A stretch of 64,000 nt of DNA from Candidatus Babeliales bacterium (GCA_963743635.1 CAVUQO010000002.1:192001-256000); one strand, 5' to 3'; shown: positions 6,012-14,124, counted from the stretch's first letter. Numbers and translations are program-made. Notes: generated from the sequence alone by a model not told the origin.

Positions 6012-6851
6012 ATGAAGCACAATAAAAACTATTTTTTAAGTTATGGTTTTATTTCTTTAATAATCTGCGCGTCACTCAGAGCAGATGATCAAATACAAAT
6101 ACCTGAAGGCTATACGCAGCTCGAGTGTACCCTGCAGCCATTTAAACGGCCAGAAGCTGAAGCATCTTTTACGCGTCCGCATATTCCGCTCAGAGAGGGA
6201 ACGAGTATTAACTGGAGTGGCTATGCCGCTGAAACTAATTTCAATAATCCAGCACATACTGTTACTAAAGTTGCCGGCACTTGGATAGTTCCTACGATTT
6301 CACGACCAACCAACAATACCAATACGTATTGTTCTATCTGGGTTGGCATTGATGGTTTTAGTGATGGCACGGTTGAGCAAATTGGCACCGAACATGATTG
6401 GTCTAGAGGGCGCCAGCAAAACTATGCATGGTTTGAAATGTATCCAAATTATCCCTATGAAATAGTTGGATTTCCCGTTAATATCGGCGATAGTATCAGT
6501 GCATCAGTGCAATATATGGGAAATAATGTGTATCAACTATACATGATCAATAATACGCACCATGTGTACATAACTATTCCTTATTCATACACTCGCTCAT
6601 CTGCGGGATTAAGAACATCGGCTGAATGGATCGTGGAAGCACCGTATGATAATACCGTATTGCCGCTTTCACATTTTAGTCCTGTGCAATTTTCAAATTG
6701 TTCTGCAACTATTGGGAACGTAAATGAAACGCTTTCCCAAACTACACATCAGCCACTTACTATGATTACTACTACCGATATTGCAAAGGCAGTCCCGTCA
6801 GCGATTATAGCTCAGACAAATGGCTTTTCTGTTACCTGGGATCATCAGTAG
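6012..6851 (+). CDS. Secreted glutamic peptidase, family G1 (peptidase A4)
   Basis: Signal peptide; SINWSGYA, WVGIDG, EQIGT (catalytic Q), AWFEMYP, SAEWIVEAP (catalytic E). Confidence 0.88.
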   Translation: MKHNKNYFLSYGFISLIICASLRADDQIQIPEGYTQLECTLQPFKRPEAEASFTRPHIPLREGTSINWSGYAAETNFNNPAHTVTKVAGTWIVPTISRPTNNTNTYCSIWVGIDGFSDGTVEQIGTEHDWSRGRQQNYAWFEMYPNYPYEIVGFPVNIGDSISASVQYMGNNVYQLYMINNTHHVYITIPYSYTRSSAGLRTSAEWIVEAPYDNTVLPLSHFSPVQFSNCSATIGNVNETLSQTTHQPLTMITTTDIAKAVPSAIIAQTNGFSVTWDHQ

Positions 6852-7161
6852 GATTCCATGCCCCGCAGACGGTGCATGGCATTGGTCTTGAGTATGGGCA
6901 ATTTCTATCACCACAATAGCAAAGATTGAAGATGTAATCGCACGTATGCGTTTTAATCGTGGTGTCAGTCGCGGTTTGCGATTGTTGTTGCGGTTTGGCG
7001 CATTGTGTGTGTTGACCATCCGCATCATTGTGTGGTTTAGGTTTTTGTTTTGGCGGTTGTACTTTTTGTTTTTGTTTCTGCTGCTGCATTTGCATGGCAA
7101 GGACGCTTTGTGGCATGAGCGAAAGTGCGAGAATGAGTGTCAGTGTTAATTTCTTAAACAT
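6832..7161 (-). CDS. Secreted Gln-rich protein with His/Cys core (array member 7)
   Basis: Signal peptide ending VLA-MQ, poly-Q/K linker, HTC...CYC...C...CTVC; paralogous to its neighbours. Confidence 0.72.
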   Translation of the reverse strand: MFKKLTLTLILALSLMPQSVLAMQMQQQKQKQKVQPPKQKPKPHNDADGQHTQCAKPQQQSQTATDTTIKTHTCDYIFNLCYCGDRNCPYSRPMPCTVCGAWNPTDDPR

Positions 7162-7180
7162 AGTGCGTCCTTTTTCTATT

Positions 7181-11636: not shown

Positions 11637-11667
11637 AATTATTTCCTTCCTGATACTACTGCCAGGT

Positions 11668-14124
11668 TTATCGATTTAAGTATGTATTAGCGCGAGTTTC
11701 GTTGTCCGCTTTTATCTCTCTGAGCGCTTGATCGAATGCAGCTTGCGTAATGCTATCCGCGCGACTGCGCATAGCGATACTCGCCGCTTTATTGACCAAT
11801 TCTTTGATATCAGCAGCATTACAACCATCGAGTTGTTGTGCTAGACGATCAAAAGATACACCAGTGACTGGACGATTTTTACTATAGAACTCTAAAAGAG
11901 CCTTACGTTTTGCAAGATTTGGTAAACCAATTTCAATGATGGTATCGAATCTTCCTGCACGTAATAATGCAGAGTCGATTGAGTTTGGACTATTGGTTGC
12001 ACCGATTACAATCACGGATTCATCTTTAAGGAAACCATCCATTTGCGTCAGAAGTTCAGTGATAATTCCTTCTTCTGATTGTGTCATATGATTGCCAGAA
12101 CGGGAGCCGATCGCATCAAGTTCATCGATAAAGATGATTGTTTTGCGGCCATTGGCTTTTTCCCGTGCCTCAGCAAAGAGAGTACGCACGTTTTCTGCGC
12201 CCTCACCGACCCATTTAGATGCAAAGTTAGAAGCTTTGGTTTCTATAAATTCGCAGCCGAGTTCTTCAGCGATTGCTTTTGCAAGCATCGTTTTACCCGT
12301 TCCTGGAGGACCTGTGAATAAGATACCCTTTGGATAAGGCACACCAAACTTCTTATAATCAAGGGTACCACTCATCATATCTGCAAGCTGTTGAATGTGA
12401 GGCGGAACGCCACCAACGATTTGGTTAAATCCTTTTGTACTCGCTTTGCCATTGAAGATTACATCAAGAGCATCCATTTGCTGTTGAGCACTTGCTTCAC
12501 CTTTGAGTAATTTCTCATTCAAGCCTTGCCTGATTGCTTCAATCATATGATTGAGTTCTATCTGACGAGCTTTATCTTTCGCAGCCAACGTACCTGCTTT
12601 TTCTAGAAGTTCTTGAAGATCGGCAGGGCTGTAATTATTCGTAGCTTCAGCAATCTTTTGCAGATTGATAGTCTGAGTATTATATGGCTTTTTCTTGCTG
12701 TAATGTTTTAAAAGAAGTTCGCGCGTTGCAAGATCAGGTAAGCCAATTTTAATAACCTTATCAAAGCGGCGCGGTCTGAGTAATGCCGGATCAAGATTTT
12801 TAGGGTTATTCGTTGCTGCTATAACAATGACGGAATCATCTTCTTCAAATCCATCCATCTCTGTCAGCAAGGTGGTAATTGTTGAATCAAGAGTATTGCC
12901 GTTACGTTTACCAATTGCATCGATTTCATCGATGAAAAGAATTGTTTTGCCTGATTGGCTGTTTGCAGCTTTTTCGCGCGCTTCTTTAAAGAGCGTTCTG
13001 ATTCTATCACCGCCTGCTCCTACGAAGGATTGTACAAACTCGGCGCCGGATACAGACATGAATTCACACTGAGCTTCTTCAGCAACGGCGCGTGCAAGCG
13101 TCGTCTTACCGGTTCCTGGAGGACCCGTAAATAAGAAACCTTTGGGTACTTTCAGATTAAATGGATTAGAGCGACCACTGTTTTTTAGCGTTTCCACCAA
13201 CTCTTTAACGTCGTGCGGAATAGTACCAATGACTCGTTTAAAACCTTTATCTTCTTGTTTGTTATTTTTTAAGGTGTTTATCGCAACCTTTAAGCGAACC
13301 AATAAGCTCTTATCAGTGCGGCACTTAGAAGTAAGAATATCAAGGAATGCCTGATTCAATTGGCTTTGCGTGATCGTGGATGTTTTTTCAACTTCTGCAA
13401 GAATGTTAGCCTTGTTTACCAGCGTTTTTAAATCGCCTGGAGTAAAGTTATAGGCTAATTTCGCAACTACGTTCACGTCAACGGTGCGATCAAAAGGACG
13501 GCCTTGATTGAGGCTTTTGATCATTGATACACGGGTTTTTTCATCAGGTAGTGGAAGTTCCACGATCTGACTGAATCTTCCCGGGCGTAATACTGATTTA
13601 TGGAATTTATCGGTTTGACTCGCAGCTATAACAATAACTGAAAGATCCTCTTTATAGCCATCCATTTCATTCATAAGCGTAACGACTTTTTCACGAATTT
13701 CGCTTTTGCCGCTATTATCATCAAAATTGTCTAATGCGAATGCGTCAAATTCATCTAAAAAGAGAATGGTCATGCCATTGGGAGATTGTTTTGCCTTTTT
13801 GCGTGCTTCTTCATACACCGCTTTTACTGCTTTAGCATCTTCGAGATCAGTCACGTTTACATAGGTGAACTGACTGTTATCAAGTTCTTCTGAAAATGCC
13901 TTTGCAAAACGAGTTTTACCCATTCCTGATTGACCAACAATAATGGTCCCTTTGGGAAAATTTAACTTATAGGTTGGTTTGGGATTTTTAAAGTACGCAT
14001 TTAAACTGGTCAGCTCAACGGGGACGCTGAGACCTAGATCAGAAAATCCTTTTGGATGGGTTGTACTGCTGATAAAAAGGATGAGCGTGGCTACTCGAGC
14101 CACATGTTTCACATGGTTTCTCAT
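11668..14124 (-). CDS. AAA+ ATPase with three tandem CDC48/FtsH-clade AAA domains and a putative signal peptide
   Basis: Walker A GQSGMGKT, GPPGTGKT, GPPGTGKT; Walker B FLDEFD, FIDEID, FIDELD; SRH RPGRF, RPRRFD, RAGRFD; start placed at ATG 14124 by a GGAG RBS. Confidence 0.9.
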   Translation of the reverse strand: MRNHVKHVARVATLILFISSTTHPKGFSDLGLSVPVELTSLNAYFKNPKPTYKLNFPKGTIIVGQSGMGKTRFAKAFSEELDNSQFTYVNVTDLEDAKAVKAVYEEARKKAKQSPNGMTILFLDEFDAFALDNFDDNSGKSEIREKVVTLMNEMDGYKEDLSVIVIAASQTDKFHKSVLRPGRFSQIVELPLPDEKTRVSMIKSLNQGRPFDRTVDVNVVAKLAYNFTPGDLKTLVNKANILAEVEKTSTITQSQLNQAFLDILTSKCRTDKSLLVRLKVAINTLKNNKQEDKGFKRVIGTIPHDVKELVETLKNSGRSNPFNLKVPKGFLFTGPPGTGKTTLARAVAEEAQCEFMSVSGAEFVQSFVGAGGDRIRTLFKEAREKAANSQSGKTILFIDEIDAIGKRNGNTLDSTITTLLTEMDGFEEDDSVIVIAATNNPKNLDPALLRPRRFDKVIKIGLPDLATRELLLKHYSKKKPYNTQTINLQKIAEATNNYSPADLQELLEKAGTLAAKDKARQIELNHMIEAIRQGLNEKLLKGEASAQQQMDALDVIFNGKASTKGFNQIVGGVPPHIQQLADMMSGTLDYKKFGVPYPKGILFTGPPGTGKTMLAKAIAEELGCEFIETKASNFASKWVGEGAENVRTLFAEAREKANGRKTIIFIDELDAIGSRSGNHMTQSEEGIITELLTQMDGFLKDESVIVIGATNSPNSIDSALLRAGRFDTIIEIGLPNLAKRKALLEFYSKNRPVTGVSFDRLAQQLDGCNAADIKELVNKAASIAMRSRADSITQAAFDQALREIKADNETRANTYLNR

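Follow-up and report, generated by a model that had tools for sequence, protein, structure and literature searches.

A predicted exported triple-AAA ATPase and its linked family of putatively secreted proteins in Babeliales

In a 64,000-nucleotide (nt) stretch of DNA from a Candidatus Babeliales bacterium (GCA_963743635.1, CAVUQO010000002.1:192001-256000; hereafter the window), a gene for an ATPase with three AAA modules and a predicted signal peptide is followed on the same strand by seven genes for predicted secreted proteins, here called partners, five of which share one conserved plan. Comparison across the phylum argues for a real two-part cassette of ATPase and partners, more than chance would bring together. 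We tentatively propose from the sequences that the ATPase is an exported unfoldase and the partners its clients: it would take hold of a partner by the tagged, disordered N terminus and then unfold, move or insert it at a membrane facing the host. We regard this proposal as a substantial possibility that falls short of being probable.

Linkage of the ATPase and its partners

The row consists of the following genes, with lengths in amino acids (aa) and each partner being an open reading frame (ORF):

11668-14124, minus strand: triple-AAA ATPase gene, 818 aa from the ATG at 14124, in an ORF open to a TTG at 14217
9936-11636, minus strand: p566; predicted signal peptide then MQMQQQ, a His/Cys stretch, a 9-Cys module, 11 helical repeats and a C-terminal membrane-type tail
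9289-9939, minus strand: p216; predicted signal peptide then MQVQQ, a His/Cys stretch, a Cys module and a Gly/Ala-rich tail ending in NGAPS
8318-9292, minus strand: p324; a different predicted signal peptide, Q/E/R-rich helices, two copies of a P-x-L-S motif and a membrane-type tail
8109-8321, minus strand: p70; a short duplicate of the 5' end of p324, predicted signal peptide plus ~50 aa
7583-8083, minus strand: p166; predicted signal peptide then MQQQQQ, a Q/K/H stretch, a 9-Cys module and three helices ending in one P-x-L-S-Y-E-E-A
7181-7579, minus strand: p132; predicted signal peptide then MQQQQQ, a Q/K/H stretch and a Cys module
6832-7161, minus strand: p109; predicted signal peptide then MQMQQQ, a Q/K/P stretch and a shorter Cys module

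We searched the same 261 genomes of the phylum with D0, the first module of the ATPase, and with a profile of the partner family. The triple-AAA ATPase was found in six of them, four from one taxonomic family (the window genome, G000, with G013, G209 and G210) and two from another (G126 and G127). In all six it is directly followed by small genes on the same strand, one to three in number (five family members in the window genome), whose products start with a predicted signal peptide, continue with MQ(Q/R/V/P)x and a K/Q-rich stretch and carry a Cys motif at the C terminus. Strong full-length matches to the partner profile (E <= 1e-17) were confined to the same six genomes and always lay beside the AAA gene; the matches in 14 other genomes were weak (E > 1e-7), fell mostly at signal-peptide and Q-rich positions and included no strong full-length one. 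A tblastn search found no partner paralogues elsewhere in the window genome. Because the ATPase and the strong partner matches occur in the same six genomes and are always adjacent, these data argue for a real two-part cassette. The first-pass annotation of this DNA had proposed a synteny search across Dependentiae and had named ATPase homologues without the array as a finding that would count against a system; the search placed ATPase and partners next to each other in every genome having either, and none of the six genomes with the triple AAA lacks adjacent partner genes.

In a quick tree, both main subclades contain ATPases from the six genomes, and both taxonomic families have members in each subclade. 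The pairing is kept across AAA divergence down to 37-56% identity, and because both subclades keep their partners at this distance, it appears to have outlived deep divergence. These results bear on the simplest alternative, that there is no functional unit here and that a fast-evolving island of secreted orphans lies beside an AAA gene by chance. The partners do lack any Pfam or NCBIfam family, and other secreted orphans occur in the surrounding window, as such an island would have it; the conservation and adjacency of the partners in each of the six genomes with the triple AAA, and their absence from the other 255, already disfavour a chance neighbourhood, which we consider very improbable.

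The compact layout that the first-pass annotation had described, an AAA gene followed after 31 bp by seven same-strand genes with three ATGA-type junctions, agrees with the ORF coordinates and the sequence. The 31 base pairs (bp) lie between the ATPase and p566, 4-nt ATGA overlaps stand at 9936-9939, 9289-9292 and 8318-8321, and the remaining gaps, from p70 to p166, to p132 and to p109, measure 25, 3 and 19 bp. A GGAG/GGGA-like motif precedes all seven partner starts by 7-10 nt. At the three ATGA overlaps this Shine-Dalgarno-like GGAG comes from AAT GGA GC-type codons in the C-terminal tail of the preceding gene (…NNGAPL, …KNGAPS and …KNGKKS, that is, Asn-Gly-Ala-Pro or Asn-Gly-Lys, at 9936-9965, 9289-9318 and 8318-8347), and translational coupling may account for part of the conservation of these tails. 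A terminator consensus scan of 6000-15000 gave 11 sites against a shuffle mean of 9.1, thus not above shuffles, and the two on the minus strand were weak and lay within coding sequence, in keeping with the earlier remark that no obvious terminator interrupts the row. Between the ATPase and a divergent gene at 14807 lies a 589-bp gene-free spacer (14218-14806) with runs of G and of C and a local G+C content of up to 0.58, compared with ~0.41 for the window, which occurs in a single copy in the genome. Examined as an RNA gene, the spacer matched no Rfam family and gave weak fold z-scores (-1.9 on the plus and -0.9 on the minus strand). It presumably holds the promoter of the row, or divergent promoters.

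Architecture and predicted export of the ATPase

The Pfam AAA family PF00004 matches the ATPase in three stretches (E 1.3e-108; 359 bits against a cut-off of 21.2) and AAA_lid_3 matches it in two, which bears out the three modules called earlier. AAA motifs could be located in each module, and in a module-to-module alignment all three open with a common Lys-Gly-Phe segment. The protein is divided as follows:

14053-14124, minus strand: predicted signal peptide, residues 1-24, MRNHVKHVARVATLILFISSTTHP, directly before the KGF of D0
13243-14052, minus strand: module D0, residues 25-294; an intact Walker A, no pore loop 1 and, in the window protein, a Walker-B Glu
12430-13242, minus strand: module D1, residues 295-565; GPPGTGKT, DEID, pore loop SFVG, RPRRF; canonical
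11668-12429 including the stop codon, minus strand: module D2, residues 566-818; GPPGTGKT, DELD, pore loop KWVG, RAGRF; canonical, with a C-terminal Tyr-Leu motif

Another 34 full-length triple-AAA clusters of 791-869 aa, at 45-70% identity, came from a database search, and those few with a name are called Babeliales or Dependentiae AAA ATPases. All 35 proteins of the family have the Walker-B Glu in D1 and in D2, and the aromatic pore loops of D1 (SFVG) and D2 (KWVG) are kept family-wide; both modules also have MDGF and Arg fingers. D0 has no such pore loop, with a six-residue deletion at the pore-loop-1 position, and its Walker-B Glu column reads Asp in 25 members, Asn in four, Glu in three and other residues in three. 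Because Walker A is intact in D0, with the pore loop deleted and the Walker-B Glu mostly lost, this module probably binds nucleotide while being a poor, non-threading hydrolase, and D1 and D2 would form the motor. At the other end of the protein, 32 of the 35 ATPases have a basic stretch followed by an aromatic-aliphatic pair (Y/F + V/I/L and the like) within the last nine residues (residues 811-818 in the window protein), with the aromatic as the penultimate residue in 14 members. These C termini resemble the C-terminal Tyr motifs that dock PAN/Rpt and p97 onto their partners.

The closest solved chains are those of Afg2/Drg1 and Cdc48/p97 (E ~1e-84), and by its sequence the ATPase is a classical-clade, Cdc48/Afg2-like tandem AAA protein. 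The first-pass description of a p97/Cdc48-like unfoldase therefore stands at the level of the clade and fails at the level of the family. We rejected membership of Cdc48/p97 because the CDC48 model TIGR01243 scored 417.8 bits against a cut-off of 802.65, with query residues 87-564 aligned to model positions 211-690 and positions 1-210 unmatched; the protein lacks the N-domain, D0 starting directly after the signal peptide. The first module is also degenerate. Membership of FtsH was rejected as well, since TIGR01241 (569.3 against a cut-off of 600, best stretch 319-564) and NF008004 (423.9 against 1008) both scored below their cut-offs and the protein ends ~30 aa past the D2 lid. The PAN model NF003069 scored 516.8 against a cut-off of 500; this score is the sum of three AAA stretches, the best of which covers model positions 132-378 and leaves the N-domain unmatched, and we have not assigned the ATPase to PAN. 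To judge from these comparisons, a signal peptide, a degenerate D0, D1 and D2 with no N-domain make up a new module architecture in the classical AAA clade.

Wider scans returned other AAA proteins. A scan of genome contigs with the whole ATPase gave just four gammaproteobacterial FtsH-like loci, and a scan of metagenome contigs with the D0 alignment gave ten loci at 26-34% identity, all of them other AAA proteins. As a separate observation, FtsH-type proteins with extra AAA modules were also seen: forms of ~880 aa in G034, G008 and G026, and metagenomic forms of 1030-1220 aa (P0037-P0055) whose matches span 91-95% of the triple-AAA query and whose precomputed annotations list the M41 peptidase family PF01434. 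A multi-module FtsH looks unusual.

The first-pass annotation had called the ATPase exported, and the N termini of the family are in keeping with this. A Sec-type signal peptide has a positive n-region, a hydrophobic core of ~7-15 aa and small residues at -3 and -1. By a simple heuristic of our own, 32 of the 35 members have a signal-peptide-like N terminus, with uncharged cores of 9-17 aa. Many have AxA-type sites before the first module, as in ..AYA|VDP, ..AHA|GMN and ..VQA|KGF, and five homologues have an extra N/P/Q/Y-rich linker of 40-50 aa after the signal region. The three members missed by the heuristic look like truncated gene calls: P0025 and P0026 begin directly at an AAA module and P0010 begins within the N-terminal region. 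In the quick tree, the triple-AAA family forms one clade (Shimodaira-Hasegawa-like approximate likelihood ratio test, 99), which lies within a wider group of double-AAA proteins from this phylum that also bear signal peptides.

The window genome contains a paralogue of the ATPase, a 799-aa ORF on contig C3 (G000:C3:586963-589362; L014 6964-9363) that is 56-58% identical over D1-D2 and nests beside the window ATPase on a long branch. In this protein D0 is replaced by a signal-like start and ~200 aa of low-complexity sequence with hydrophobic segments. No partner-like genes were found near it; downstream, on the opposite strand, lies what we take, from reading the translation, to be a DsbD-like pair.

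Alternatively, the hydrophobic N terminus of the ATPase might stay uncleaved and anchor the motor to the inner membrane on its cytoplasmic side, as in an FtsH lacking its protease; there the motor would act from the cytoplasm on the membrane or secretory proteins encoded next to it, or have nothing to do with them. An uncharged core of 9-17 aa is too short to cross a membrane as a helix, the positive charges stand N-terminal to it and AxA-type sites follow it in many members; by the positive-inside rule, such N termini place the C-terminal part outside. These features make an anchored motor improbable in our view, even though ATP is certain in the cytoplasm, the C3 paralogue, with its signal-like start, ~200 aa, hydrophobic segments and two AAA modules, resembles FtsH in topology, and the N/P/Q-rich linker behind the hydrophobic stretch of some homologues is tether-like.

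The partner family, its mosaic gene row and the surrounding window

Five of the seven partners (p566, p216, p166, p132 and p109) are built alike: a predicted signal peptide leads up to Met-Gln-x-Gln-Gln at the presumed cleavage site, and a Q/K/H-rich stretch, a T/Q/D/E linker and a Cys module of the form H-x-C...C-x-x-C-G-C...C-x-x-C follow; in p566 and p216 the Q/K/H-rich stretch includes HDHHGCDCAHH. In an alignment of 15 partner sequences from the six genomes, Met occupies the predicted +1 position and a small residue the -1 position in all 15, Gln is nearly invariant at +2 and +4, and three Cys columns are invariant, with CxxC-type pairs. The Cys motif is either short, L-C-P-I-C-x-x-P-x-C-P-F/W, or long, C-P-x-C...C...C-G-C-P-x-C-G-G. 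The first-pass annotation had treated the seven partners as one set that mixes signal peptides, Q/H/T linkers, Cys/His cores, helical repeats and hydrophobic tails. All of these parts are present across the partners, and five of the proteins do form a set; the signal peptide of p324 and p70 is a different one, both lack the Cys module, p324 also lacks the MQxQ tag, and neither belongs to the conserved family. What they have in common with it is just a helical motif, a tail or a junction: P-x-L-S-Y-x-E-A occurs in p324, p566 and p166, and p324, p566 and p216 share a hydrophobic tail and the junction that follows. Membrane-type tails span residues 518-552 of p566 and 288-311 of p324.

The conserved Met after the signal peptide was considered as a true or second start and rejected, since the upstream hydrophobic segment is kept coding in 15 of 15 partners and a Shine-Dalgarno-like motif stands at the first ATG, with none before the internal one. 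Nor is MQxQ a general sorting motif of this genome: a signal-like stretch with MQxQ occurs in seven of 3171 ORFs of at least 60 aa, and five of the seven are partners. The other two (G000:C1:16122-16574 and G000:C2:54930-55232, both on the minus strand; 150 and 100 aa) are otherwise unrelated to the partners.

Database searches returned few relatives. Against Pfam and NCBIfam, the partners matched no family at E <= 0.01 beyond chance-level rows and nothing credible at E <= 10. A word-indexed search with the partner alignment recovered the input proteins and P0127 only, with nothing among longer proteins, and an ESM Atlas search gave no usable match. A phmmer search of p566 against 1.84 billion representatives gave eight matches, among them four new partner-like proteins (P0130, P0131, P0132 and P0134) and a HEAT-like repeat protein (P0133, E 3e-5); all four follow the partner plan, and P0130-P0132 have hydrophobic tails. 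Because four more proteins of the same plan were found in this way, the partner family is, as far as sequence can tell, rare but real.

Structure prediction gave the partners a disordered leader and small folded parts. In an AlphaFold2 model of p166 built from the 15-sequence alignment, the leader (residues 38-65) has a predicted local distance difference test score (pLDDT) below 50, and residues 70-166, which contain three helices and, within the Cys module, short beta strands, have a pLDDT of 77-94; Foldseek found no match to this model at E <= 0.001, and the best VIA-wide Z was 4.3. Residues 130-490 of p566, modelled without an alignment (pLDDT 87), form 22 helices arranged as two-helix repeats, with ten matches to the P-x-L-S-Y-x-E-A motif and one degenerate copy at a period of 27-34 aa. 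The best Foldseek matches to this region have low TM-scores (0.1-0.22) and are designed helical repeats, TAL effectors and mTERF. The model suggests a generic alpha-solenoid, for which no specific family can be named. The partner profile gave only weak matches to Protein Data Bank sequences (E 0.006-1.5), nearly all of zinc-ribbon or rubredoxin type (rubrerythrin, eIF2-beta, eL37/eL42/eL43, Nop10, RPA12 and a RING), a hint that the Cys module may be a metal knuckle.

These resemblances invite the explanation that the ATPase and the partners are host-directed effectors that are co-inherited and co-expressed and act separately, the ATPase remodelling host proteins and the K/Q-rich, zinc-ribbon-like proteins hitting host targets, possibly the nucleus or nucleic acids. 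Many partners have basic K-rich clusters, which we assume to resemble nuclear localisation signals, and the zinc-ribbon matches of the Cys module and those of the p566 solenoid to TAL effectors and mTERF (E 0.05-0.2) point the same way; all of these structural and sequence matches are weak, however, and several partners have membrane-type tails, which sit poorly with such a role. Secretion of signal-peptide-bearing AAA proteins into the amoeba has been proposed for Babela massiliensis in the part of the report available to us (PMC4378268). Strict adjacency and co-occurrence in six of six genomes, across two AAA subclades, exceed what independent effectors would lead one to expect, and we judge separate action unlikely.

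At the DNA level, the 5' ends of the partner genes are duplicated in three sets, as had been noted. The repeats are 133 nt at 91% identity in p132 and p166 (7451-7583 and 7955-8087), 136 nt at 85% in p216 and p566 (9738-9873 and 11426-11561) and 88 nt at 83% in p70 and p324 (8256-8343 and 9227-9314), and the junction between genes is likewise repeated, with copies at 8296-8347, 9267-9318 and 9914-9965. Downstream of the duplicated ends, identity drops to 24-53%. In a codon-wise comparison, the first 45 codons of p166 and p132 show 87-96% identity and few synonymous differences, and the codons beyond them 30-53%; in p566 and p216, identity peaks at 91-93% in codons 30-60, outside the signal peptide. 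Because identity among the array members is mosaic, the pattern points to recombination or gene conversion between them. The short p70 is possibly a remnant. In public contigs from two studies the array is present with no differing letter in the long pieces and breaks solely at the repeated 5' ends, and contigs from four public DNA runs held no array variants. Since public contigs carry it unchanged, the array is not an assembly artefact.

The surrounding window holds further genes for secreted or membrane proteins. On the plus strand, 14807-15973 and 16147-16827 encode two paralogous exported or membrane proteins of 388 and 226 aa with T/A/S-rich linkers and a common N terminus, M-E-T-x-L-(I)-L-K-R-M-A-L-V-A-S-L-T-L-S-V-G-L; they match no Pfam or NCBIfam family, and public contigs break or branch at their common 5' ends. 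A signal-peptide-bearing Peptidase A4 protein (PF01828, E 2.7e-35) at 6012-6851 on the plus strand converges on p109, with a 3' overlap of 20 nt. At 3872-5791 on the minus strand are adjacent ORFs that we read as Ku (280 aa) and an ATP-dependent DNA ligase (347 aa), presumably a non-homologous end-joining pair.

A possible mechanism and comparison with known systems

Classical AAA proteins form hexamers whose pore loops thread polypeptides, starting on disordered ends. On this model, the ATPase would be a Sec-exported, soluble AAA+ unfoldase of Babeliales (Dependentiae) parasites in which the pore-less D0 probably serves as a docking or regulatory ring and D1 and D2 as the threading motor. The partners would be exported too, and cleavage of their signal peptide would leave a new N terminus of Met-Gln-x-Gln and a disordered Q/K/H-rich stretch, followed by a Cys-rich knuckle module that is probably metal-binding. 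After export of both, the ring might engage the disordered, tagged N terminus of a partner and unfold, move or insert the partner at a host-facing membrane, with energy supplied by the host ATP around an ATP-importing parasite. In the window genome, the partner set has grown through duplication and recombination to five members and two mosaic relatives, gaining a helical-repeat solenoid and membrane-type tails. What the sequences show is the anatomy of the proteins, the export signals across the family, the synteny and the co-occurrence; that the proteins leave the cytoplasm, that the ATPase is a hexamer and binds the partners, and in which direction, where and on what energy it acts are inferred.

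Bacterial AAA+ unfoldases are thought of as cytoplasmic, with ATP being absent outside the membrane. The window genome has four TLC/NTT nucleotide-translocase genes and two secretins, and the available parts of two reports describe ATP/ADP translocases and a type II system as general to the phylum (PMC4776705, PMC4378268). An extracytoplasmic ATPase is not absurd in such a parasite, because host ATP must cross the periplasm to reach the TLC/NTT transporters, and the presence of ATP outside the cytoplasm is plausible.

Because the ATPase lacks an N-domain, D0 or the partners must supply recognition. The partners might accordingly be cofactors or adaptors whose constant part, the tag, the Cys knuckle or both, docks on the D0 ring and whose variable part, the helical solenoid or membrane tail, brings the motor to its targets or to membranes. 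Precedents for adaptors are the UBX or SHP cofactors of p97 and the zinc-binding domain of ClpX. An adaptor set of this kind would suit the combination of a constant module with variable C-terminal parts in each partner, the position of D0 directly after the signal peptide, which leaves the ATPase with no recognition domain of its own (the CDC48 N-domain positions being unmatched), and the expansion and recombination of the set in this genome. It is harder to square with G126, whose sole partner is a 126-aa protein of tag and Cys module with no targeting part, and with the long N-terminal leader, which is disordered and more like a threading start than a docking domain. We consider adaptors somewhat unlikely. 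The leader of p166 is disordered and therefore fits a threading substrate, in line with the partners as clients.

Several points weigh against exported clients. Nothing in the data separates the role of client from that of adaptor. In an oxidising periplasm, the Cys modules would be expected to form disulfides instead of holding a metal. The signal-peptide calls rest on our own heuristic and not on SignalP. In C. destructans, 44% of coding sequences are predicted to have signal peptides, according to the part of the report available (PMC6561590), so such an N terminus on the ATPase may be a less specific sign in this phylum. The six genomes are kin, from two families and five genera, and are not independent observations. 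One ATPase copy, in G210, is frameshifted in D0, and G209 has a second cassette with a broken ATPase. The G209 cassette occurs twice, in L020 (G209:C6) and L021 (G209:C2:436000-452000), together with two upstream 240-aa secreted paralogues and flanking genes; in L021 the ATPase is split into five ORFs and two of the three partner genes are intact. Because G209 has an estimated contamination of 6%, two strains are possible.

With a predicted Sec signal in nearly all members and ATP-importing parasites as their owners, the family suggests that proteins are remodelled at the expense of ATP in the periplasm or within the host. Motor and tagged partner form a concrete, testable pair from a linked family with a conserved predicted mature N terminus, and the cassette could show how Dependentiae, which reportedly have Sec and type II secretion only, handle or deliver host-directed proteins. 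A more specific version, which we put forward by analogy and think distinctly unlikely, is an extracytoplasmic ATP-driven translocation or membrane-insertion machine in which the triple-AAA ring, sited in the periplasm or at the surface facing the host, would recognise the MQxQ and poly-Q/K tag laid bare by signal-peptidase cleavage on the co-encoded zinc-knuckle proteins and thread these across or into a host-derived membrane, powered by host ATP. If true, such a threading machine would be a bacterial counterpart of the PTEX/HSP101 logic, possible only through the host ATP that bathes the parasite.

Among known systems, the ATPase is most like Cdc48, p97, VAT and Afg2 in its tandem classical AAA modules, Walker A and B motifs, aromatic pore loops, MDGF and Arg fingers. 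Unlike Cdc48/p97, it lacks the N-terminal double-psi-barrel domain, has an extra degenerate AAA module in front and a predicted Sec signal peptide, and comes with dedicated partners that resemble no known cofactor. D1 is closest to the AAA domain of FtsH (TIGR01241 best stretch 319-564; 1ixz, E 4.5e-54), whereas the M41 peptidase and the paired membrane helices of FtsH are missing. HSP101 of the Plasmodium PTEX complex is a signal-peptide-bearing AAA+ unfoldase that acts outside the parasite cytoplasm and threads proteins with an N-terminal motif exposed by processing; it differs, being a eukaryotic ClpB-type, class I Hsp100 with known membrane partners, and the possible likeness is functional only, with no homology claimed. 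The first-pass annotation recognised no described system in this layout, and in the literature on exported, secreted or periplasmic AAA proteins and on Dependentiae AAA proteins we likewise found no description of this cassette. Signal-peptide-bearing AAA proteins of the phylum are already in print for another family: the available part of Pagnier et al. (2015, PMC4378268) describes AAA-Ulp1-like proteins in Babela massiliensis for which a signal peptide is predicted and secretion into the host by Sec and a type II system is proposed. The window ATPase resembles these proteins as an AAA ATPase of the same phylum with a predicted signal peptide. In that part of the account, the AAA-Ulp1-like family has one AAA domain fused to a permuted C48 peptidase and is species-specific to B. 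massiliensis, whereas the window ATPase has three AAA modules, no peptidase and a separate, conserved family of partners.

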